Shown one piece after another: positions 14,175 to 48,329 of a DNA stretch of 49,535 nucleotides. The stretch's first letter is position 1. Each line of letters begins with the position of its first letter. The DNA comes from an uncultured Clostridia bacterium (GTDB lineage Bacteria > Bacillota > Clostridia > TANB77 > CAG-508): NCBI GenBank assembly GCA_944388665.1, contig CALXJQ010000002.1, positions 1 to 49,535 on the forward strand. Reading direction: 5' to 3'. Under the pieces are notes generated by a model, which had not been told where the DNA came from, did not search any database, and worked only from the letters and a program-made list of their open reading frames with translations. Made by a program: the position numbers and the translations under genes.

Positions 14175-16952
14175 ATGAAAAAGAATATAAAAATATTTGT
14201 TTTAGTAATTGTTTTATGGATATTTATGTTATTTATTGGCGCAAATAATAGTTTTGCTATTGATGTAACATTAGAAGATAAATCAGAAGCATATAAGCAA
14301 TGGGAAAGCCGTACAGAAGAAGAAAGAATGAGGTTATATGAACCATTACCATTTAATATGTCTGTAAAAGATTCTATTAAGCGTTCTACCTATAATCAAA
14401 TGTTGAGTTTAGCAGGTGCTAATATAATTCCTTCAGATTCATATAATTTAAAAGATGATCTTCAAAATATCTATGTTAGAGATCAATTAAAAACTTCTAC
14501 TTGCTGGGCATTTTCTTTTGCCGGAACTGTAAATATGAGCATGCAGAAGCAAAGGATGATTTCTCAGCAATATTCGCCAATGCATATAGAGTATAGAGCT
14601 ACTCAAATGTTTGCAAGAAATGTGGGTGATGGAGGAAATCAATATATGGCTTTAGCATATAGTACATCTGGAAATGGTCCCGTATTAGAAGAAGATATGC
14701 CATTTTCAGAATATTATGATGAAAGCAATCCACCATCATATATGGCACCATTAGATGAAATAGATGTACCAACTAAAACACCTGAAGTAGAAATTGATAA
14801 TGCGACAATATTTGATGGAATCTATAAAACATATCAAAATGGACAAGTTACTTCATATCATGATGGCAACAATACAGAAACTTACAGTGACAGCGAGGTA
14901 AAGGCAATAAGAAATTTAATTAAACAACACATTATGGAGTACGGTCCTCTTGCAGGATTATTGTATTCTGATATAGGAATAGATCAAAGTGGAAATTATG
15001 TTAGCCCTAGTTATAATTCTAGCACAGCTGCATATTATACTAATGATGCATCAGAAGTGGCAAATCATGCTACAATAATTGTTGGATGGGATGATAATTA
15101 TTCTGTAGATAACTTTAGAAGTGACAAAAAGCCTAAAAATCCAGGAGCATATATTGTACTAAATTCTTATGGCGAGAATTTTGGAGAAGGCGGATTTTAT
15201 TATATCTCTTATGATGATGCTATTGTAGAAACTTCACTTATTGGTCTTACAAGTGTAAATGATGAAATAAATTATGATAAAATATATCAATACAATGAAT
15301 TAGGAATGAATCAATCAATATCATTGGGTGATGCAGGAACTATTTATGGAGGAAATAAATTTACTAGAGAGCAATTGGATGATAAGGTAGAATATATTAC
15401 ATCTGTTGGTGTGTACTTATCAGAAGCAGAAGGACTAGAAATTTATATAAACTCAGAAGATGATAATATTCCAAACTCAAAACTAGTATGTACTCCAGGA
15501 GCATTAGAAGCAGGGTACCACAACATAGTACTACCATCACCAATAGAACTAACTGGAGACAAATTTGCAATAGCGATAAAATACACAAATCAAGAGGGAG
15601 CCAGCCTTCCGATAGAAGCAAATTTGAAAGAAAGTAATTTTGCACCAGAAGGCAATATGTATGACTCAGCTAAAAGTGGATCAAACCAAAGCTTCTTTTC
15701 ACCAGATGGAGCATATTGGCAAGAATTGAATGATACTAGCGCAGGTGAAGACATTGTATTAAAAAATACAGATACTTGTATTAAAGTCTTTACACGTTTG
15801 GCAGATAAACCTAAAGAAATAAATGTTGAAGGTGTTAGCCTTGATAAGCAAAGCATTACTTTAACTGAAGGTGAAACAGATACACTAACTGCAACAATTA
15901 CTCCAGACAATGCTACAAACAAAAATATTACATGGTCAACATCAAATCCAGATGTGGCTAGTGTACAAAATGGGGTAGTTACTGCAAATAGTGCAGGTAC
16001 AGCTACAATTACTGTTACAACAGAAGATGGTAACAAAACTGCGCAATGTCAAGTAACTGTTATTCAAAAGCCAATTGAAATTATTCATGTACAGGGAGTT
16101 TCTTTGGATAAAACTAATATTACTTTAACTGAAGGCGAAACAGATACATTAACTGCAACAGTTATGCCAGATGATGCTACAAATAAAAACATTACGTGGT
16201 CAACATCAAATCCAGATGTGGTTAGTGTACAAAACGGAGTAGTTACTGCAAATAGTGCAGGTACAGCTACAATTACTGTCACAACAGAGGATGGCAATAA
16301 AACTGCTACGTGTCAAGTAACAGTAGAAGAACAACCTGTTCAAATTATTCACGTAGAAGAAGTATCTCTAAACAAAGAAAAAGATACATTAGAAATTGGA
16401 AATACCACAAACTTAAATGCTTCAATTACGCCATCAGATGCTACTAATCAAAAAATAATATGGACAAGCTCAAACCCTGACGTAGCAACAGTAAATGATT
16501 ATGGTGTTATAAAGGCCTTAAAAGAAGGAACAACTATAATTACGGCAACAAGTGAAGATGGAAATATATCAGATTCTTGTGAAATAACAGTTATCAAAAA
16601 AACAAATACTGATGACGATATATATCAAGATGATGACCAAAATACAGGTGGAAATAATACAAACACTGGAAATAATAGCAATAATAATAGCGCTACTAGC
16701 ACGAATAACACAGGTAATAGTGCAAATAGTGGAAACAATGACAACTCTGAAAATAGAGATGATGGAAATATGAACATAACTGTTGGACAAATAAATCAAG
16801 GAAATAGTCCACAAGTAGACAATACCATCTCTAATATTTCAAGACTACCAAATACAGGAGCTACATGGATTTTAATATTTATTACTCTAATAATTCTTAT
16901 ATTTGGAATTGTAAAATTTATTGAATATAGAAATTTGAAAGATGTAAAATAA
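14175..16952 (+). CDS. cell-wall-anchored papain-like (C1 family) cysteine peptidase with three Big_2 repeats and an LPXTG sorting signal
   Basis: Signal peptide. QLKTSTCWAFSF (catalytic Cys) and NHATIIVGWDD (His). Three ~85-aa repeats V(S/E)LDK..ITLTEGETDTLTATI.P.DATNKNITWSTSNPDVA.V..GVVTA...GTATITVTTEDGNKTA.CQVTV. An Asn/Gly/Thr-rich stalk, then LPNTG, a TM and a basic tail. Confidence 0.85.
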   Translation: MKKNIKIFVLVIVLWIFMLFIGANNSFAIDVTLEDKSEAYKQWESRTEEERMRLYEPLPFNMSVKDSIKRSTYNQMLSLAGANIIPSDSYNLKDDLQNIYVRDQLKTSTCWAFSFAGTVNMSMQKQRMISQQYSPMHIEYRATQMFARNVGDGGNQYMALAYSTSGNGPVLEEDMPFSEYYDESNPPSYMAPLDEIDVPTKTPEVEIDNATIFDGIYKTYQNGQVTSYHDGNNTETYSDSEVKAIRNLIKQHIMEYGPLAGLLYSDIGIDQSGNYVSPSYNSSTAAYYTNDASEVANHATIIVGWDDNYSVDNFRSDKKPKNPGAYIVLNSYGENFGEGGFYYISYDDAIVETSLIGLTSVNDEINYDKIYQYNELGMNQSISLGDAGTIYGGNKFTREQLDDKVEYITSVGVYLSEAEGLEIYINSEDDNIPNSKLVCTPGALEAGYHNIVLPSPIELTGDKFAIAIKYTNQEGASLPIEANLKESNFAPEGNMYDSAKSGSNQSFFSPDGAYWQELNDTSAGEDIVLKNTDTCIKVFTRLADKPKEINVEGVSLDKQSITLTEGETDTLTATITPDNATNKNITWSTSNPDVASVQNGVVTANSAGTATITVTTEDGNKTAQCQVTVIQKPIEIIHVQGVSLDKTNITLTEGETDTLTATVMPDDATNKNITWSTSNPDVVSVQNGVVTANSAGTATITVTTEDGNKTATCQVTVEEQPVQIIHVEEVSLNKEKDTLEIGNTTNLNASITPSDATNQKIIWTSSNPDVATVNDYGVIKALKEGTTIITATSEDGNISDSCEITVIKKTNTDDDIYQDDDQNTGGNNTNTGNNSNNNSATSTNNTGNSANSGNNDNSENRDDGNMNITVGQINQGNSPQVDNTISNISRLPNTGATWILIFITLIILIFGIVKFIEYRNLKDVK

Positions 16953-38352: not shown

Positions 38353-38679
38353 TTAATCAGATTCGTCATTATATTCTTTTACCCTTGTATTAACACCGTC
38401 AATAATTTTATATTCTCTTTTTGAATTCTTATAAACCTTTTTTTGCATCTCGTCTTCTAAGTCTACTCCCAAAATTTCTGATAATCCCAATAAATATATT
38501 GCAACATCAGCCAACTCTTCTCCTAAGTCGTCTTTCTTTTTTCTCCACGCCTCATAAGCTTCAGCCATTTCTCCATAAGTTAAGCAGAATTCTTTGTTAA
38601 TATCTGTTACATTAAATCCCTTATCTACTTTATTTTGATATATTTCTTTTTGCAGTTTCTTTAAATCTATCATATTCAT
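38353..38679 (-). CDS. MazG-like nucleoside triphosphate pyrophosphohydrolase
   Basis: LTYGEMAEAYEAWRKKKDDLGEELADVAIYLLGLSEILGVDLEDEM, the EExxE/D-type MazG helix pair. Confidence 0.8.
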   Translation of the reverse strand: MNMIDLKKLQKEIYQNKVDKGFNVTDINKEFCLTYGEMAEAYEAWRKKKDDLGEELADVAIYLLGLSEILGVDLEDEMQKKVYKNSKREYKIIDGVNTRVKEYNDESD

Positions 38680-38685
38680 TACCTC

Positions 38686-39294
38686 CTAATTTAAAAAATT
38701 CATTACTAAATCTATGATTACATCCTTTTCTTTAGGATTTGACTCGGCTATGAGTAATGTTAATGCAGCTAATGTGTTATTGTCAATTGTTTGTTTTCCA
38801 TTTTTATATAAAATTCCGTAGAAATTTAAGAAATATATAAACAATGTAGCTGCAATTCTTTTATTTCCATCTGCAAATACATGATTCTTAACAATTAGAT
38901 ATAGAAAGTTCGCAGCTTTTTCTTCTATACTCTTATAAATATCGTGTCCGTCAAAGCTTTGATAAATATTTCCTATTATTGACTCTAATCCATTATCTCT
39001 TTCTATTGCAAATAATGAACTTTCTTCATTAAATCTTAATTTATTTATAATTTCTATACAATCTTTATACTCAATTTTTCTTTCATCAATATTTCCTTTT
39101 ACTTTTTTTAGAGTTCCATGGTCATAATCATCTAATAAATCTAAAGCTTTTGAATATTCGCCAATTACTTTTAATATTTCTTTAGCATCAGAGCCTTCTA
39201 GTCTTTCATCGATTCTATTAGCAATATCAATTAATTTTACTGTTTTTTCTAAATATTCTAGTCTTTTTTGATTGACTGCATATCCTTTTAACAT
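38686..39294 (-). CDS. RhuM-family / Fic-DOC domain protein, N-terminally truncated
   Basis: Fic-type motif HVFADGNKRIAATLF. The frame stays open upstream to 39354, encoding AKSKNGVIFRKWATKVLKDYMLKGYAVNQKRL, the RhuM core motif. The usual ~130 N-terminal residues are absent. Confidence 0.7.
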   Translation of the reverse strand: MLKGYAVNQKRLEYLEKTVKLIDIANRIDERLEGSDAKEILKVIGEYSKALDLLDDYDHGTLKKVKGNIDERKIEYKDCIEIINKLRFNEESSLFAIERDNGLESIIGNIYQSFDGHDIYKSIEEKAANFLYLIVKNHVFADGNKRIAATLFIYFLNFYGILYKNGKQTIDNNTLAALTLLIAESNPKEKDVIIDLVMNFLN

Positions 39295-39325: not shown

Positions 39326-41117
39326 CTAAAAATTACACCATTCTTTGATTTTGCTCACCCTATCTGATGACAGGTCAGTATTAAAAGAATTTTCAAGGTC
39401 TGATGAAATGGTTGGAATGAAAAACTTTTTTTTGGATTCTCCTATTTGACTATTTAAGAAATATATTTCAATGTTCTCTCCATCACCATAGATTTTTTCT
39501 ATAAATAAGCCTACAATATCTCTTTTAGTTTTTAAATCAAATGTATGGAATATGTCGAAAGAATTATCAATAACTTTTAGCAAATCTTTTGCTGTTTGCA
39601 TTTCAGAATTATTATTAATCTTTGTTTTATTTTTTATATTTGCTATTTGTGTTTCTAAATTTTGTTTTTGTTCTTTTAATTCTCTCAACTTATAATTTAC
39701 CATATCTATTAGATCAATGTCAATATACTGTAGTTTCTCTACTAATTTGTCAATTTCTTCTTTGTTTTTATTATATGCATTTTGTAAGAACTCTAATTCG
39801 CTATTAGAATTATCGTTATTCTTAATTGATGCTATTTTTTGAAGTTCTTTATATATTTCAGAATTAGGAACAAAAGTATTCTTCATTATTTCAAATACCT
39901 TGTTATCAATTTCACTTCCAACATTTAGGGATTGACACTTATGTCCTCGTGATTTTTCTTTTAAGTTACAACAGTATCTATAATAAGCATTTCCATCTTT
40001 ATCTGCTTTTCCCATATTTTTCGCTCTCATAAGTGAATTACATCTTTTACACCTTAATAAACCTGTTACAATAGTATTAGTCTTTTTCAATATGGCTGCT
40101 CTATATTTCTTATCAGCATTTTTTTCAATAAGCATTTGAACAGCAACCCAATCTCTCCCGTCAATAATTCCTTGATGCAGACCAACTGCAATTATCCATT
40201 CTTCTATTGGTTTTTCTTTTCCCCCATACCCACTTGTTTTGTTGTATGTCAAAAAACCGTATTTGCCATTATTATTTTTTCTGTCATCATCTTCACGGTA
40301 AATAAATATTCCTTTTGAATTAAAATACTCCATTGTATCATTGTCGTTTTTAGCATATACTGGATTTGTAAGTATTTTTCTTATAGCACATATTCCAAAA
40401 TATACCCCCTTTCTTGTTCTTATATTATTATTCATTAAATATGTCAGTAATTTTGACATTGATTTTAATTCTAAAAATTTAGCAAATATTAATTTAACCT
40501 TGCTTAATTCTTCATCATTTATAACAAGTTTAGATGCGACTTTACTTTTTTTAGATATACAGTCCTTATCTTCCTCACATACCTCTACTTTTTTATATCT
40601 TTCTGTGCTAAATCCGTAAAGGAGCTTCGCCTCCTAACCATGTACCTGTTTTTGATAATTCAAATAAGTTATCTCTAATTCTTTCTGCAATTACTTCTCT
40701 TTCTAATTGTGCAAATACAGATGCTATATACATCATAGCTCTTCCCATTGGTGTTTTAGTATCAAATTGCTCTTTTATTGAGATAAACGAAGTTTCTAAT
40801 TCATTTAATTCATTCATTAAAGAAGAGAAATCTGCTATATTTCTACTAATTCTATCTAATCTGTAGCAAATGAGAATATCATAAGGATATTTTCTTTCAT
40901 CTTCTAAAAAATCTTTAAATCTTGGTCTATCTAAACTTCCTCCTGAAAAGCCTTCATCTTCATATATTACAATTTCTACATCATATATATCTTCTGGATA
41001 ATTTCTTTTTATATATTCCTTTGCAAGTTCAATTTGGTTTCCTACTGAATCTCCTTTATCTGTATATTTTGATTTTCTTGAGTATATCGCAATTCTTATT
41101 TTTATTTTTTCGTTCAT
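39326..41117 (-). pseudogene. large serine recombinase interrupted by a 1-nt frameshift near 40617-40620
   Basis: AAGGAGG precedes ATG 41117. IAIYSRKSKYTDKGDSVGNQ (catalytic Ser), ICYRLDRISRN, then ...GTWLGGEAPLRI-stop. Deleting one T gives GGEAPYGFSTERY..., continuing into ORF 39326..40459. That part has a recombinase domain, the zinc ribbon CKRCNS...CCNLK...HKC and a coiled coil. Confidence 0.8.
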
Positions 41118-41357
41118 TTTTGCCTCCTTTTTTATGATTTTAAAAAAGGAGGCTTGTCTATTCAAATGTATAAAATTAACTGTTTTTTAATAATTGTAGA
41201 ATTGACTTTAATATATTTTCTTTATCAGTTTTTGTTATTGGTAAACTCTGCACATATTCTTTTATTAAAATCGCTTTTACAAAGGCAAGATTATGTATAT
41301 ATGCATCACTTCCTTGATTATCTATTTTTATATTCATCTTCTATCATCTCACATAAA

Positions 41358-41791: not shown

Positions 41792-42388
41792 TTACCTACC
41801 TTTCTTTATTATATTATCTGCTTGTTTCTCTATTTCTTCTGGTGAATATAATTCCATTAGCGTTAATATATATTCTCCAAACAATTTATTGCTTATCTCT
41901 AAATTTCCAGTGTTTTTCAAATACTCTTTTGCTACAATTCCATAAGATGAAACTTGTTTTCTAGTAATAAACTCTGTTTTTTCTTCTTTTTCTAACGCTA
42001 ATTTTTCAAAATACTTCGCATCTTTAAGTGCTTTATTCAAATCTATACCTAATGCAATGATAATACCTATATCGATTTCTTTCATATCATTATTTCCAAT
42101 GTGTCCAATATAATTTCTTATTCTTGATTTATCTATTACTCTTATCTGTTCTAACAAAATTAACGAATCTTTAGGTAATCCGTTACTTTTTTCATCTATA
42201 AAAATGTGTGTGGGTAATTTTGATTTAACTTTTACTTTACTTGTAATTGGTGCAATTATAACTGTTGGACTGTAAAGATTTCCTACATTATTTTGTAAAA
42301 TAACAACTGGTCTAATTCCTGTTTGCTCGCTTCCTACTACATCTTCATTTAAAACTGCATAAAATATATCTCCTCTATTTATTTCCAT
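41792..42388 (-). CDS. MazF/PemK-family endoribonuclease toxin with ~85-aa C-terminal extension
   Basis: RGDIFYAVL...GSEQTGIRPVVILQNNVGNLYSPTVIIAPITSK...KLPTHIFI...GLPKDSLILLEQIRVIDKSRI is canonical MazF. Residues ~115-198 are an additional K/E-rich helical region. Confidence 0.85.
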   Translation of the reverse strand: MEINRGDIFYAVLNEDVVGSEQTGIRPVVILQNNVGNLYSPTVIIAPITSKVKVKSKLPTHIFIDEKSNGLPKDSLILLEQIRVIDKSRIRNYIGHIGNNDMKEIDIGIIIALGIDLNKALKDAKYFEKLALEKEEKTEFITRKQVSSYGIVAKEYLKNTGNLEISNKLFGEYILTLMELYSPEEIEKQADNIIKKGR

Positions 42389-42539
42389 TTTTTCTTTTTT
42401 CCTCCCATTCTTTTAAATATTTACTTTGTTCTTTGTTTTCATATTCTATTTCTTGTTTTGTTTTGCTTTTGCTACTTCCTAAAATAATAAGATATGTAAA
42501 TATTGCAATAAGTATCATAATAAAAAGTATTATTTTCAT
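42375..42539 (-). CDS. 54-aa protein: N-terminal TM helix plus charged tail, overlapping the mazF-like start
   Basis: AAAGGAG precedes ATG 42539. MKIILFIMILIAIFTYLIILGSSKSKTKQEIEYENKEQSKYLKEWEEKRKNGNK. Its stop lies 14 nt inside the MazF-like ORF, suggesting translational coupling. Confidence 0.45.
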   Translation of the reverse strand: MKIILFIMILIAIFTYLIILGSSKSKTKQEIEYENKEQSKYLKEWEEKRKNGNK

Positions 42540-42979: not shown

Positions 42980-43456
42980 TTAATTTTTTAAAAATTTTCG
43001 TATATTAACTATTCCTTTTCGTATAGTTTCACTTACAGCTTGGTGTGATGTTTTCTCTAATTTTGCAATTTCTTCTACAGTTTTATCTTCAAAATAGTAT
43101 AGCTTTATTCTTCTTTTTTGAACTTCTGATAAACAATTAATTGCCTTTTTTAATTGCTTGTTTGTTGTATTAGTTTCTACTATTTCTTCTACATCTACAG
43201 GCTTATGTAATATTCTTTTATTTAAAGTGTTTTCAAATACTTCTGAATGTTCTATATGATTATCGTATTCATTTAATTCTGATAAGTCATCTAATTCAAA
43301 TTGATTCATTGCTTCATATATTTCTTGACCTATCTTTATAATTTGTTTATGTCCTTCCCCATCTTTAAATATTGCATAATATGTATTATTTTCTTCATCA
43401 TGCAATAAAGTATATGGATTATCTTTATATTTCCTTCTTTTTGGTCTTTTCGCCAT
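42980..43456 (-). CDS. sigma-70 region-4 (HTH) domain protein typical of Firmicute mobile elements
   Basis: CLSEVQKRRIKLYYFEDKTVEEIAKLEKTSHQAVSETIRKGIVNIRKFL is a region 4.2 HTH. The N-terminal half is unrelated to sigma region 2. GGAGGT RBS. Confidence 0.7.
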   Translation of the reverse strand: MAKRPKRRKYKDNPYTLLHDEENNTYYAIFKDGEGHKQIIKIGQEIYEAMNQFELDDLSELNEYDNHIEHSEVFENTLNKRILHKPVDVEEIVETNTTNKQLKKAINCLSEVQKRRIKLYYFEDKTVEEIAKLEKTSHQAVSETIRKGIVNIRKFLKN

Positions 43457-43995: not shown

Positions 43996-44712
43996 ATGCG
44001 AAAAGTGCTTATTGCTAACCATGATATTGACCAGAATAAGCAACTCTGCCAATATCTTACAAATGATAAAAGATTTGAAATAACCGAAACAACAGATGGA
44101 AAAAGTACATTGAATAAATATCTTGAAATAAAGCCAAATGTTTTAATTTTAGATACAAATTTTAAAGATATGAATTGTATTGAAATTATTAATAGACTTT
44201 CAATGACTATTGAAGAAAAAAGAAACTGTAATACTATACTTGTAGTGGATAAGTCAAACGAAAATATTAAAATTACCAATATGGCAAAAGTATATAAGGT
44301 AATTGAATATTCTGATTTAGACGATTTATTTAATACAATTAATGAGATATGCTCTTACTCGGAATATGAGGAATTAACTGAATTCGACATTGATAAGCTA
44401 TTCTTGAAATTAAAAATTAAACTAAACTCTAATGGTGCTGATTATTTAAGAGAATCAATTACTCAATGCTATTATTATCCGAATTTATTGAAAAAATTAG
44501 ATGATATTTTCTTTATGCTTGCCAGAAAACATAATAAGACAAATGATGCAATTAGGTCTAGTTTTAGGTCAGCATTAGAGCCTTTAAATAACTTTAGAGA
44601 TACGATTGATTATCCAATTATGAAATATTTTGATTATGGTTGTAAAATTACCCCTCAAAGATTTTTAGAAATTGTTGTAATGTATTTACACATAATAAAA
44701 AATAAGAAATAA
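43996..44712 (+). CDS. Spo0A paralogue: degenerate receiver domain plus Spo0A_C-type DNA-binding domain
   Basis: AGGAGG RBS. N-terminus KVLIANHD...KPNVLILDTNF...ILVVDKS has REC layout with the acidic DD pair replaced by NH. C-terminus GADYLRESITQCYYYPNLLKKLDDIFFMLARKHNKTNDAIRSSFRSALE parallels Spo0A GYMYLREAI...[33 protein letters not shown]. Confidence 0.7.
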   Translation: MRKVLIANHDIDQNKQLCQYLTNDKRFEITETTDGKSTLNKYLEIKPNVLILDTNFKDMNCIEIINRLSMTIEEKRNCNTILVVDKSNENIKITNMAKVYKVIEYSDLDDLFNTINEICSYSEYEELTEFDIDKLFLKLKIKLNSNGADYLRESITQCYYYPNLLKKLDDIFFMLARKHNKTNDAIRSSFRSALEPLNNFRDTIDYPIMKYFDYGCKITPQRFLEIVVMYLHIIKNKK

Positions 44713-44754: not shown

Positions 44755-45933
44755 TTAATGGTTCTCTATATATTCTTTATAGCTTTTCATAATATCGTTA
44801 ATTTCAGAAGAATTTACTGGTTCTGTTACAATAGAATTAAATTTTCTACCTATTATATTATATACCTTTTCTATATCATTATCATTGATGGAATTATCTG
44901 TAATCAAATTGAATACAGGAACATCATTTTTTAAGTTTTCTTTTGTTTTTTCTATCATATTAACTCCTGTTTCAACATCATACTTTGCAAACACCATTTC
45001 AGGTTTTAGATTTACTATTTTTTGGTATGTGTCCTCACCATTTATTGCAGTTCCAACAATTTCTACAAAAGGAAGTTGATTTATTGAATCGACTATTTGC
45101 TCTCTAATTTGTTCTTTGTTATGAGCGATTAATGTTCTAATTTTATTAGATGAATTAATTTTGTCAAAATCTATATAATCTTGTTTTAGAGCATTTGCAA
45201 AATAATGATCCTTTCCGTTTTCAGTTCTAATAACATCTGCATTTGGAAGTACAACTATGCTTTTTTCAAACTCATTTTGTTTTTTATATTCTACCTTTTT
45301 TATATTCTCAAATGTTTTTAAACTTTTAATTCCATTTTCTAATTCTTCTTCCGTTATTTCAAATAGTTTCTCGTTTTCTAATGCCCTCTCTCTTATAGGC
45401 ATAAATTTTAAAAATTTCCACTTTTCAATTTTATAATTATTTAAAAACTCCCCTAATTCTTCTAGTTTATTTACATTTTGCTTACTTACTACCGTATTTA
45501 TTCCAATTTTAATTTTCTTATTTTTTGTTTTTTCTAGCAAATTCTTGATAATTTCAAAATGGTTATTTTCTTTTCCTAAAGCTGTATTTATATCATTTTC
45601 GATAGAATCAATTGACAAATTTATCTCATCTAGTATATTTAATATGTCATCTACATATTCAGTATTATTTTTAGATAAGAATATTCCATTAGTTACAAGT
45701 TTGTTGTGTAATCCCATTGTTTTTGATTTTTTCATCAAATCTCTGACATTAGGATAAAGGACAGCCTCTCCTCCAGTCCATGTAATATGATTAATTCCAT
45801 TCTTTACTAAATTATCTAATACCTTTTCATTTTCACTATAAGACAAATCAGGTATATTAGTGAATCCAAAACAATATTTACATCCTTGGTTACATTTTGT
45901 TGTTATCTTCCAACATACTTTCTTCTTAACCAT
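44755..45933 (-). CDS. viperin-like radical SAM enzyme fused to a C-terminal Spo0A-type pseudo-receiver domain
   Basis: AGAGGA precedes ATG 45933. Matches to viperin motifs: [18 protein letters not shown] (CX3CX2C), [55 protein letters not shown] (cf. RWKVFQ). Residues ~275-392 ([12 protein letters not shown]...[26 protein letters not shown]...VFNLITD...) follow a CheY/Spo0A receiver layout with degenerate acidic pocket. Confidence 0.7.
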
Positions 45934-46021
45934 TTTAATCCTCTTTTCATATATAAAATTATACATTAATATTATATATGAGTTTCATAGAAAATACTAT
46001 TCTAAGATTTTTAAGGATTGT

Positions 46022-47026: not shown

Positions 47027-48106
47027 TTATGTATTTTGTTGTTTTTTATACCATAATTCTGCTTTTCTTATATCATATTTTGTTCCAGTTTTTAGTTTAA
47101 ATGACTTCACTAATTCAATTAAGTTTTTAATTTCTTTTTCGTCAGGATTTTCTTTTTTAGTTTCTATTTCTAAAAATATTCCTAAATGATCAATAACTTG
47201 TATAAATACAATATAGTTTTCATTTTCGTAACGATAGTTTTTATCTATCATTCTTAAAAATCTAGTAAATCCTAAACTATTAAGCAATTTTTCGGCATTA
47301 TTTATATCATCTATTTTTAATATAGTTTTTTCTGTTCCTATTTCAAATCCTTCAGAATTATACGCTCTCTTTTTAGAAATAATTTGCTTATCGTTATCAT
47401 TGGTATAACGAATAATTAGTGTATCTGTTATACTGCCATTTTGTGGTACATATTGTTTTGTTTTTTGGTTACACATATAAATATCATCTAAAGTAAATTC
47501 TTCAACATAATTGAAATTATTACTTTCTAACTTCTGTTTAATACTATCTAATTCTTCAAATACTTCACAAGTAATTTCAGTATTATTAATATTTACCTCT
47601 TCCCTATCCTCTGCATTTGTATATAATTTTGATTTTTTTTCTAGTAATACAAAGTTGCAAGAAATATTTGTAAAGAATGGGATTTTTAGTTTAACTACAT
47701 TTCTATATATTTTTTTAGCTTTTGAATAGATTATTTCTTTATTGTCATTTATAAAATCACTTTCTGCTTGTAATAAATCTTTATACTTTTTTCCTCTAGC
47801 ATTAAAGTCTAACAATTGTATAGCATTTAAAGGAACAGGTATCATTTCAGCAAATCTTATTATAGATACATTTTCTTTTTTTCTGTTTTCAACTCGTATA
47901 AAACTAGGATTATCTTTATATTTATTATAGCTGGCTTTATATGAATAAAGAGGAGCAAAATATAAATGATTTTCTACTTTTAATACGATTCCAATATAAG
48001 GTCTTTTATTTTCTTTATTCCAACTTACATGATTATCAAATTGGCTTAAATATTCTATATATTCATCAGCTACAATATAAAATTTTAATGTTTCATTTTC
48101 TCCCAT
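47027..48106 (-). CDS. type III TA toxin (ToxN/AbiQ family endoribonuclease) fused to a C-terminal CYTH (CyaB/triphosphate-tunnel)-like domain
   Basis: AAGGAGAAAAAG precedes ATG 48106. The N-terminal ~165 aa read LKFYIVADEYIEYLSQFDNHV...RPYIGIVLKVENHLYFAPLYS...IIRFAEMIPVP...CNFVLLEKK and match AbiQ/ToxN. The C-terminal ~190 aa read LIIRYTNDNDKQIISKK...LGFTRFLRMIDKNYRYENENYIVFIQVIDHLGIFLEIE..., fitting the CYTH pattern ...LGF...K.R..Y......V.LD.V..LG.F.EIE. Confidence 0.75.
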   Translation of the reverse strand: MGENETLKFYIVADEYIEYLSQFDNHVSWNKENKRPYIGIVLKVENHLYFAPLYSYKASYNKYKDNPSFIRVENRKKENVSIIRFAEMIPVPLNAIQLLDFNARGKKYKDLLQAESDFINDNKEIIYSKAKKIYRNVVKLKIPFFTNISCNFVLLEKKSKLYTNAEDREEVNINNTEITCEVFEELDSIKQKLESNNFNYVEEFTLDDIYMCNQKTKQYVPQNGSITDTLIIRYTNDNDKQIISKKRAYNSEGFEIGTEKTILKIDDINNAEKLLNSLGFTRFLRMIDKNYRYENENYIVFIQVIDHLGIFLEIETKKENPDEKEIKNLIELVKSFKLKTGTKYDIRKAELWYKKQQNT

Positions 48107-48126
48107 CTTTTTCTCCTTTATAAACA

Positions 48127-48160
48127 AAACAGGGTATATTTCTACACCCTGTTTGAATTT
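48127..48160 (-). terminator. terminator between the antitoxin repeats and the toxin gene
   Basis: AACAGGGT / ACCCTGTT stem (48127-48152), followed on the minus strand by TTTGTTTAT. This matches the ToxIN-type layout. Confidence 0.6.
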
Positions 48161-48161
48161 T

Positions 48162-48269
48162 AAATCTCCCTACTCAAGGCAAGGGTTTTCCTAATGTAAA
48201 TCTCCCTACTCAAGGCAAGGGTTTTCCTAATGTAAATCTCCCTACTTAAGGCAAGGGTTTTCCGAATAG
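48162..48269 (-). ncRNA. ToxI/AntiQ-like antitoxin RNA: three tandem 36-nt repeats
   Basis: The plus-strand unit AAATCTCCCTACTCAAGGCAAGGGTTTTCCTAATGT occurs at 48162-48197 and 48198-48233 (identical). A third copy at 48234-48269 has 4 substitutions. The units are head-to-tail with no spacers, directly upstream of the toxN-like gene. Confidence 0.8.
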
Positions 48270-48300
48270 CAACCATAAGATTGCTCTTACTAGTATATTC

Positions 48301-48329
48301 ATTATACAACATTTTTATAACAATGTCAA
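48301..48329 (-). promoter_or_regulatory. consensus promoter driving the repeats and toxin
   Basis: On the minus strand: TTGACA (48329-48324), a 17-nt spacer, then TATAAT (48306-48301). Confidence 0.65.

Follow-up and report, generated by a model that had tools for sequence, protein, structure and literature searches.

A divergent viperin fused to a pseudo-receiver domain in a conserved gene block of a mobile element from uncultured Clostridia

Viperins are among the few immune enzymes common to bacteria and humans, and are usually described as stand-alone proteins, assisted at most by a nucleotide kinase. We have analysed a gene at positions 44755-45933 of a 49,535-nucleotide stretch of DNA from an uncultured Clostridia bacterium (contig CALXJQ010000002.1 of assembly GCA_944388665.1); the whole stretch is called the window below. 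An initial annotation had read the product of this gene as a viperin-like radical SAM (S-adenosylmethionine) enzyme fused to a pseudo-receiver domain of the Spo0A type. We find a divergent viperin joined to a generic pseudo-receiver. Here viperin-type chemistry sits in a regulatory assembly, composed of the pseudo-receiver, a Spo0A paralogue, a LysR-type regulator and a CYTH protein, on an integrative element.

The fusion gene and the two halves of its product

The gene and its parts are as follows.

44755..45933, minus strand: viperin-like radical SAM / pseudo-receiver fusion gene; intact open reading frame (ORF) of 392 amino acids (aa), stop codon included
45939..45944, minus strand: Shine-Dalgarno sequence AGAGGA, 5 nt upstream of the ATG at 45933, read from the sequence
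45148..45933, minus strand: N-terminal viperin-like radical SAM domain, residues 1-262, from Foldseek, PDB profile search and residue comparison
45871..45894, minus strand: codons of the CxxxCxxC [4Fe-4S] motif (C14-NQG-C18-KY-C21), from the translation and invariant alignment columns
44758..45147, minus strand: C-terminal pseudo-receiver domain, residues 263-392, from phmmer, AlphaFold2 of the domain alone and Foldseek

The ORF list contains a second in-frame ATG upstream of the start, at 45966. The homologues begin with MIKKK or MVKKK, in agreement with a start at 45933, and because of these starts and the Shine-Dalgarno sequence 5 nt before the ATG we take the 392-aa reading to be correct; the ORF first proposed is a real one, on the minus strand. 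A hairpin and then a T-run lie 3' of the LysR gene that sits upstream of the fusion gene. The fusion gene may for this reason have its own promoter. The AlphaFold2 model of the full-length protein has a pLDDT of 90.6 and a pTM of 0.71.

Pfam assigned the fusion protein only to the generic Radical_SAM family (residues 9-164, E = 1.7e-18). Two PADLOC models of prokaryotic viperins (pVips) matched with E values of 8e-39 and 1.5e-38 (~131 bits), and the best NCBIfam match of the N-domain was viperin_w_prok (118 bits, E = 4e-34), with MoaA at 79 bits; the alignment to the NCBIfam viperin profile stops at position 258 of 281. When a profile of 54 family members was run against the sequences of the PDB, nine viperins led with 91-102 bits, followed by SkfB and MoaA at 57-59 bits. 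Foldseek comparison of the AlphaFold2 model with the PDB returned viperins as hits 1-17, with target-normalised TM scores of 0.70-0.80 over 246-286 aligned columns; mouse viperin (6Q2P) was aligned over 274 columns with a target-normalised TM of 0.76. Profile, PDB sequence and predicted fold alike put viperins nearest to the N-domain, which is a divergent viperin. The initial annotation had left room for membership of another radical SAM family. This is not the case, viperins coming first by hidden Markov model (HMM), PDB profile and Foldseek. MoaA, QueE, the pyruvate formate-lyase activases and the SPASM maturases were considered as identities for the domain and rejected, all scoring far below viperin.

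The cysteines C7, C14, C18 and C21 are invariant in the 54 family members, as are G54, G55 and E56 of the GGE SAM motif. Of the viperin C-terminal extension, the first part has its strands and helix in place (residues 211-260); the last ~30 residues are absent from the fusion protein, and the receiver stands in their place. Residues were compared in a MAFFT alignment with human RSAD2, prokaryotic viperins (two of them archaeal, two clostridial) and relatives of graded distance. All of the viperin motif pairings listed for the domain by the initial annotation were reproduced in this alignment. It places the window protein in a short clade with the first strand V-C-W-(K/N)-I-T, in which relatives score 116-148 bits against the NCBI viperin model.

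Modelled alone with AlphaFold2, the C-terminal domain adopts a (beta-alpha)5 fold of five strand-helix units (pLDDT 94.1), and all of the 50 best Foldseek hits of this model were receiver domains (TM 0.6-0.8). The region is thus predicted to fold as a receiver, as had been proposed. The Foldseek list is led by AraT, RcsB, CheY, NarL and CheB, with Spo0A in tenth place. A phmmer search gave VraR as the best match (E = 8e-5), a designed CheY-like protein next and Spo0A third (E = 0.002), and the PDB matches of the family profile over the receiver were CheB, CheY and VraR at E values of 1e-6 to 1e-8. Pfam found no match to PF00072 in the window protein at E <= 0.01; some homologues have weak or faint precomputed matches to this family. 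The domain is a generic pseudo-receiver without specific kinship to Spo0A. The Spo0A-type label has accordingly been abandoned, since VraR/LiaR, AraT, RcsB, CheY, NarL and CheB match as well or better.

The substitutions read from the sequence at the outset were confirmed. In the phmmer alignments with VraR and Spo0A, H271-N272 stand at the DD pair, K317 at the acceptor Asp and E371 at the conserved Lys. The acceptor column holds K, N, E, R, S, Q, G or T in all 54 family members and never Asp. Because neither an acceptor Asp nor an acidic pair occurs in the 54 members, phosphotransfer through the fused receiver is excluded. Atypical response regulators likewise keep the (beta-alpha)5 fold with phospho-acceptor and metal-binding residues replaced, and the Spo0A paralogue next to the fusion gene is itself atypical; the domain described here differs in being attached to a radical SAM enzyme, an architecture for which we found no description.

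A conserved gene block and the mosaic history of the gene

The fusion gene lies among the following genes.

47027..48127, minus strand: endoribonuclease toxin of the AbiQ/ToxN type (residues 14-171) with a CYTH-like domain attached; ToxN_toxin E = 3e-39, PADLOC AbiQ
47030-47590, minus strand: CYTH-like part of the AbiQ fusion, ~residues 180-366; NCBIfam class IV cyclase/CYTH, 42 bits
46063..46938, minus strand: LysR-type regulator directly upstream of the fusion gene; Pfam HTH_1 and LysR_substrate
43996..44712, plus strand: convergent Spo0A paralogue, an atypical receiver with a Spo0A-type DNA-binding domain; weak Pfam matches to Response_reg and Spo0A_C
42980..43456, minus strand: sigma-70 region-4-like small regulator (Pfam Sigma70_r4); position conserved in related loci, HTH_16 gene next
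41792..42539, minus strand: PemK/MazF-family toxin gene (PemK_toxin E = 6e-32), apparently split into ORFs of 54 and 198 aa
39326..41165, minus strand: large serine recombinase in two reading frames, Resolvase N-domain at 40608-41165, Recombinase and Zn-ribbon at 39326-40459

More than 50 related loci (those named below carry our handles L007, L008 and so on) keep one order: LysR gene, fusion gene, convergent Spo0A paralogue, sigma-like gene, in some cases PemK, then one or two serine recombinases. It is unchanged in loci whose fusion protein shares no more than 42-48% identity with that of the window. Wherever a related locus extends far enough upstream, the LysR gene precedes the fusion gene, and the Spo0A paralogue adjoins the fusion gene in nearly all loci. 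Directly upstream of the LysR gene there is a CYTH-like gene in most loci, not in all; the assignment is based on matches to PH1819 and to a Sulfolobus triphosphate-tunnel enzyme, with marginal scores in Pfam and NCBIfam. The AbiQ-CYTH fusion recurs at 66% identity in L051-L053 (4792-5871), and since this is another element lineage the fusion is not a one-off. We consider the unit to be mobile, because the flanks beside the recombinase differ between copies. The initial annotation had mentioned neither this mobile setting nor the conserved CYTH and LysR partners.

The convergent neighbour is a genuine Spo0A paralogue, as had been supposed, with both halves matching Spo0A best. It matches NCBIfam spore_0_A with E = 1.6e-10, and the profile of its family has the Spo0A receiver as best match (E = 9e-9) and also finds the Spo0A C-domain (E = 1e-5). 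The acidic pair is missing from this family too, and the acceptor position is D or N. BLAST detected no similarity between the receiver of the paralogue and the fused receiver, and for that reason the idea that the two are recent paralogues was dropped.

The history of the gene was examined through pairwise distances over 32 non-identical loci, the pairs of which are not independent. The distances of the receiver half correlate with those of the Spo0A paralogue (r = 0.95-0.96), with those of the sigma-like gene (r = 0.88) and with those of the enzyme half of the same protein (r = 0.55-0.70); the enzyme half correlates with LysR (r = 0.84-0.85). With a sliding window, the change between the two patterns is located at residues ~250-280, the linker between the domains. 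The receiver half of the window protein is 42-53% identical to that of every sampled relative, and for the enzyme half the values run from 44% to 88%; in the close subfamily identity is 79-90% between enzyme halves and mostly 43-53% between receiver halves. Because the correlations switch at the linker, we regard the gene as the junction of a cargo block (LysR and enzyme) with a backbone block (receiver, Spo0A paralogue and sigma-like gene), and the sequences indicate that recombination has occurred at this point. Whether the block as a whole is core or cargo is judged from a handful of contexts. The suggestion that the fused receiver and that of the Spo0A paralogue form a matched pair survives in part. 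The close correlation of the two supports a functional pairing without proving it, as physical linkage alone can yield such correlations and would explain much of this one, with the next backbone gene not far behind.

Stand-alone receiver genes are found upstream of the block in some elements (L022 4102-4485, L024 7765-8148, L032 7611-8060 and L048 5430-5897), and where compared (L022, L024, L034 and L035) their products are 32-36% identical to the fused receiver. That of L032 keeps the canonical DD pair and has Asp at the expected acceptor site, judged by eye from its N-terminal sequence. These genes suggest that the fused pseudo-receiver was derived from an element-encoded receiver. In L027, L030, L032-L035 and L060 a protein of 503-509 aa is encoded between the LysR gene and the Spo0A paralogue (e.g., L030 9932-11461). 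Its C-terminus is 38-43% identical to the receiver of the window protein (L027-L035) and its larger radical SAM half only 25%.

The regulatory end of the element resembles that of Tn916/Tn5397-type elements: after an antisense regulator come sigma-like and HTH_16 genes, and at the terminus stands a large serine recombinase with DUF4368. It differs in that the antisense regulator is a Spo0A paralogue. Such elements have an orf9-orf7-orf8 regulatory region and a serine recombinase of the TndX/TnpX type; in Tn916, tet(M) is where the cargo sits here, and the sigma-like gene is comparable to orf7. No conjugation genes were seen in the element stretches read.

Related elements abut or truncate sporulation genes (L007/L008 ~15400-16700; L010 16360-16527; L057 192-431; L059 68-1451), as do skin-like intervening elements of spore formers. 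The genes touched include a 428-aa spoIVA call overlapping the 3' end of a recombinase gene, a 55-aa fragment of the GPR germination protease, a 79-aa fragment of an Mn-catalase (possibly of the CotJC type), and dpaA/dpaB beside an integrase. Other element copies adjoin genes unrelated to sporulation. In the element most like that of the window (L051-L053, 4065-4559) there is a 164-aa gene with a faint Spo0E-like Pfam match, possibly a further link to the Spo0A pathway.

The block might be a control module of the mobile element. The enzyme and the CYTH protein would make or remove a nucleotide-derived molecule, LysR would sense it, and the pseudo-receiver would couple the enzyme to the Spo0A paralogue, so timing excision, transfer or maintenance, possibly in step with host sporulation. 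We think this unlikely, though well worth keeping in view. In its favour are the preservation of the LysR, enzyme-receiver, Spo0A-paralogue and sigma-like order in proteins so far diverged; the share of the block in the smallest example (L060, ~9.4 kb), where it is much of the coding capacity; the position of the Spo0A paralogue, which is that of the orf9 regulator of Tn916, beside orf7/orf8-like genes; and the contacts with spoIVA, the gpr and Mn-catalase fragments and dpaA/B, together with the faint Spo0E-like gene of one element. The separate histories of the enzyme/LysR and receiver/Spo0A blocks are those of cargo on a backbone, however, and many insertion sites lie outside sporulation genes. 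A distant Spo0A paralogue (29% identity) moreover occurs in a tyrosine-integrase Tn916-like element with different cargo, and because of this the Spo0A paralogue fits the part of a backbone regulator. A related proposal is that the enzyme is not primarily antiviral. A mobile element of spore-forming gut Clostridia would have tied a nucleotide-modifying radical SAM enzyme, by way of a pseudo-receiver, to its own Spo0A paralogue and sigma-like regulators. LysR would read a modified nucleotide, or the removal of that nucleotide by the CYTH protein, as a developmental or regulatory signal, whereby excision or maintenance of the element, or transcription in the host, would be coupled to the decision to sporulate. 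We give this a small chance; if true, viperin chemistry would have gained a new use, and mobile elements a new route into the Spo0A pathway.

Relatives of the enzyme and its possible function

Two word-indexed searches gave 1,207 and 847 homologues (E <= 0.001); those listed are mostly full-length, at 390-410 aa. When cluster representatives were searched exhaustively, four clusters of the full-length fusion emerged, with identity down to 29%, as well as many stand-alone short-clade proteins of ~260 aa and other fusions. The genome matches all came from assemblies of uncultured 'Clostridia' or 'Clostridium sp.', and the taxonomy strings of a published table place relatives in TANB77 (CAG-465, CAG-245) and RF39 (Bacilli). 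One homologue, P0055, is 68% identical to the window protein with the same architecture, and the index of the assembly collection has it in 5,190 blocks; the fusion family is very common in human-gut metagenomes. Searches with tblastn gave one weak partial radical SAM match in phage genomes and only ordinary viperins of ~30% identity in plasmids. Judged by these searches, the fusion family is not a known phage or plasmid gene.

The family is already public and has been counted as viperin. In Table S2 of Shomar et al. (2023; 10.1101/2023.09.13.557418), headed 'Detected viperin genes', entry GCA_000433135_00496 has exactly the sequence of P0055, with the receiver; it was P0055, and not the window protein itself, that was looked up there. 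The HMM cut-off of that census was set by its authors with MoaA control sequences (10.1101/2023.09.13.557418). Fusions are analysed there for eukaryotic viperins only, and a receiver is mentioned neither in its text nor in the parts of its tables covered here (10.1101/2023.09.13.557418). Relatives carry the automatic JGI name 'radical SAM enzyme/CheY-like'. Literature searches for a viperin-receiver, viperin-Spo0A or viperin-CYTH link returned nothing relevant, two evolutionary surveys of viperins do not mention fusions to a receiver or to LysR, and no description of the architecture or its context was found. The novelty asserted for the viperin-receiver fusion therefore holds for its description and not for the sequences, which were available under these two labels.

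Paralogues of the enzyme bear on its chemistry. P0168 (561 aa; L037-L039) is a viperin-like domain (42% identity) fused to a LysR protein that is 34% identical to that of the window (E = 3e-40), and a CYTH gene lies directly upstream of it. P0129 (L041-L044) carries a PfkB kinase on its viperin-like domain, with a divergent LysR gene upstream, and P0137 (L040), a stand-alone member of the short clade, lies among two CYTH genes and a thymidylate-kinase-like gene. Some eukaryotic viperins are also fused to CYTH domains (Shomar et al., 2023; 10.1101/2023.09.13.557418). Kinase and CYTH partners argue for nucleotide chemistry, probably that of triphosphates, and the viperin-LysR fusion argues for a direct coupling to transcription. 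A product linked in this way to a transcription factor is what a control module of the element would use, although a 3'-deoxy-3',4'-didehydro (ddh) nucleotide is not a known LysR ligand and the nucleotide-kinase partners of the paralogues are the classic signature of viperin defence.

The paralogues also lend themselves to a metabolic or natural-product role, in which the short clade would modify a nucleoside or nucleotide (for salvage, as a cofactor or as an antimicrobial) under the LysR regulation usual in catabolic or biosynthetic operons, and the receiver would be only a dimerisation domain. P0168 and its CYTH gene lie beside an NMT1-type ABC transporter, a PEP-utilising enzyme and a histidine phosphatase; the LysR gene beside the fusion to a PfkB sugar/nucleoside kinase is divergent, which is the classical arrangement for such regulators; and residues conserved in canonical viperins are altered, as set out below. 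The receiver-fused family itself has toxin and abortive-infection genes for neighbours on a mobile element, neither a transporter nor further biosynthetic enzymes being conserved nearby, and the published census with its MoaA-controlled cut-off took the family in as viperin (10.1101/2023.09.13.557418). We think such a role improbable.

The reading that we prefer, with middling confidence, is that the fusion protein is a divergent and probably active nucleotide-modifying enzyme of the viperin type, travelling as cargo with LysR and usually CYTH, its tail replaced by an adaptor, and that it most likely serves in defence. The radical SAM half would most likely dehydrate a ribonucleotide to its ddh analogue, and the resulting chain-terminating nucleotides would be of benefit against phages or rival mobile elements. 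The enzyme half travels with LysR and usually a CYTH (triphosphate-tunnel) protein as the cargo block, in which the CYTH protein would supply the triphosphate nucleotide or process it, with expression under the control of LysR. In evolutionary terms the receiver half belongs to the regulatory backbone of a serine-recombinase integrative element, with the Spo0A paralogue and the sigma-like protein. Independent of phosphorylation and standing where the viperin tail had been, it may act as an adaptor that puts the enzyme under the regulators of the element, through dimerisation or gating of the active site. The toxin- or defence-like cargo of the element (AbiQ with its antitoxin-like repeats, MazF/PemK and Fic/Doc) provides the setting.

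A number of findings weigh against the preferred reading, and our confidence in it goes no further because of the altered pocket and the great constancy of the block across the element family. At 118 bits the fusion protein misses the NCBI viperin cut-off (NF038283, an equivalog model, 180 bits). Nine positions are conserved in canonical viperins, and were seen to be so for the canonical prokaryotic viperins of the same MAFFT alignment; of these the window protein keeps only N222 and K247 (mouse numbering). N77 is replaced by Cys, which is invariant in the family, H79 by Lys, K120 by His, K220 by Gly and R245 by Lys; Y302 is lost, and R347 is absent together with the RGGxYxW tail. Several of the residues changed here are reported by Fenwick et al. 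(2020) to hold the triphosphate in the viperin pocket. Because these positions are changed and the tail is missing, the substrate may not be a nucleoside triphosphate (NTP). The claim of a match to viperin 'motif by motif' was thus overstated, sound as its motif pairings are.

Other objections come from the relatives and the context. Our searches of the literature found no member of the short clade with a reported experimental test. Two distant full-length relatives, P0143 (34% identity) and P0185 (29% identity), keep the receiver and have lost CxxxCxxC, and are probably pseudo-enzymes. On the same receiver some elements carry a different radical SAM domain of ~370 aa that is not preferentially viperin-like. 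LysR and Spo0A-type regulators are unusual in defence systems, the neighbours of P0168 have a metabolic look, and the block, constant across the whole element family, could be part of the element's own control circuit and not a swappable defence cargo.

Two further observations concern the pocket and the tail. The family has invariant basic residues of its own, K78, K176 and R181, which might compensate for those lost from the viperin set. Canonical viperins have a disordered C-terminal tail, and in a 2026 preprint that of a fungal viperin was needed for chain-termination activity, more than 80% of which was lost on truncation by 18 residues; the receiver of the window protein starts where this tail would be.

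The pseudo-enzymes raise the further alternative of a sensor or scaffold, in which the radical SAM half (e.g., as an oxygen-, redox- or SAM-sensing Fe-S domain) would inform the receiver and the Spo0A paralogue, with catalysis secondary. P0143 and P0185, with the receiver kept and the cluster motif gone, would suit such a role, as would the occurrence of the same receiver with decayed or exchanged radical SAM halves and the much faster evolution of the receiver half than of the enzyme half (42-53% against 70-90% identity in the subfamily). Seen from the other side, constraint on the N-domain is much stronger than on the receiver; all residues that bind the Fe-S cluster or SAM, and many in the pocket, are invariant across 54 diverse members, that of the window included; and the kinase and CYTH partners argue for real nucleotide turnover. 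We therefore regard a sensor as very unlikely, and both this and a metabolic role as less likely than defence.

The preferred reading invites comparison with known systems. The protein shares with the pVips, reportedly described by Bernheim et al. (2021), a radical SAM core with CxxxCxxC and GGE, which probably forms a partial barrel, and viperin models are its best matches by sequence and by fold; shared, too, are nucleotide-kinase genes near its paralogues and a place on a mobile element among defence and toxin genes. It differs in belonging to a short clade without R347, the RGGxYxW tail and several conserved residues, scoring below the NCBI equivalog cut-off, and in its C-terminal pseudo-receiver and obligatory regulator neighbours. 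With Detocs and other receiver-effector defence proteins, the likeness lies in a receiver-type domain fused to an enzyme predicted to act on nucleotides, in a defence-like setting. Detocs depends on a histidine kinase together with two receivers, one a buffer and the other, on the effector, phosphorylatable. In contrast to Detocs, the receiver here is without an acceptor Asp, and in the window and the related loci no kinase gene lies directly beside the fusion gene; a kinase-type gene (HATPase_c) lies ~9 kb from it in some loci, beside an ABC transporter. Eukaryotic viperin fusions (to a nucleotide kinase, to a CYTH 'triphosphatase or cyclase' and to an E3 ligase; Shomar et al., 2023) are alike in their accessory domains and the partnership with CYTH. 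None has a receiver, whereas here the CYTH domain is a separate gene or is fused to AbiQ and it is a signalling fold that the enzyme carries.

If the enzyme makes ddh-nucleotides it would be the first regulated, receiver-coupled viperin, and CYTH proteins would be pointed to as general partners of viperins, a link that recurs in the eukaryotic fusions. If it does not, the altered pocket would mark a new reaction within the viperin scaffold. Either outcome would provide a testable entry into the biology of the uncultured TANB77 and RF39 gut bacteria and their mobile elements.

Other features of the element

Upstream of the AbiQ/ToxN gene lie the following features.

48329-48301, minus strand: perfect TTGACA-17-TATAAT promoter before the 36-nt repeats, from a promoter scan
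48161..48267, minus strand: three 36-nt tandem repeats; Tandem Repeats Finder, period 36, 3.0 copies, 97% matches
48154-48127, minus strand: terminator-like hairpin between the 36-nt repeats and the AbiQ/ToxN gene, from a terminator scan

Promoter, repeats and hairpin before AbiQ/ToxN (48127-48329 of the window, minus strand) have the canonical layout of a type III toxin-antitoxin system, and the repeats are probably an antitoxin RNA of the ToxI/antiQ type belonging to the AbiQ-CYTH gene. An Rfam scan of the element region, the 36-nt repeats included, gave no family match.

At the other end of the element two genes appear broken. L051 has an intact PemK homologue of 251 aa, which by tblastn matches the gene of the window in two pieces, and intact recombinases of 507-665 aa stand at the equivalent position in related loci. 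With both the recombinase and the PemK/MazF gene split, this copy of the element may be decaying, or there may be assembly errors. A short resolvase-like gene lies between PemK/MazF and the large serine recombinase. Past the recombinase are a Fic/Doc-family gene and a small gene that by eye resembles a MazG-type NTP pyrophosphohydrolase (window 38353-39294, minus strand), and beyond them is a very AT-rich stretch of ~1.4 kb (36.5-37.9 kb) with small ORFs only. The ends of the element were not located: on the right it continues beyond the window, and on the left the AT-rich stretch is without a recognisable split gene; a tRNA scan of the element region found nothing and so no tRNA attachment site. 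A second large serine recombinase of 552 aa is encoded at 1004-2662 of the window (plus strand). It is 26% identical to the recombinase of the L051 element, and may belong to another element or be a developmental recombinase.

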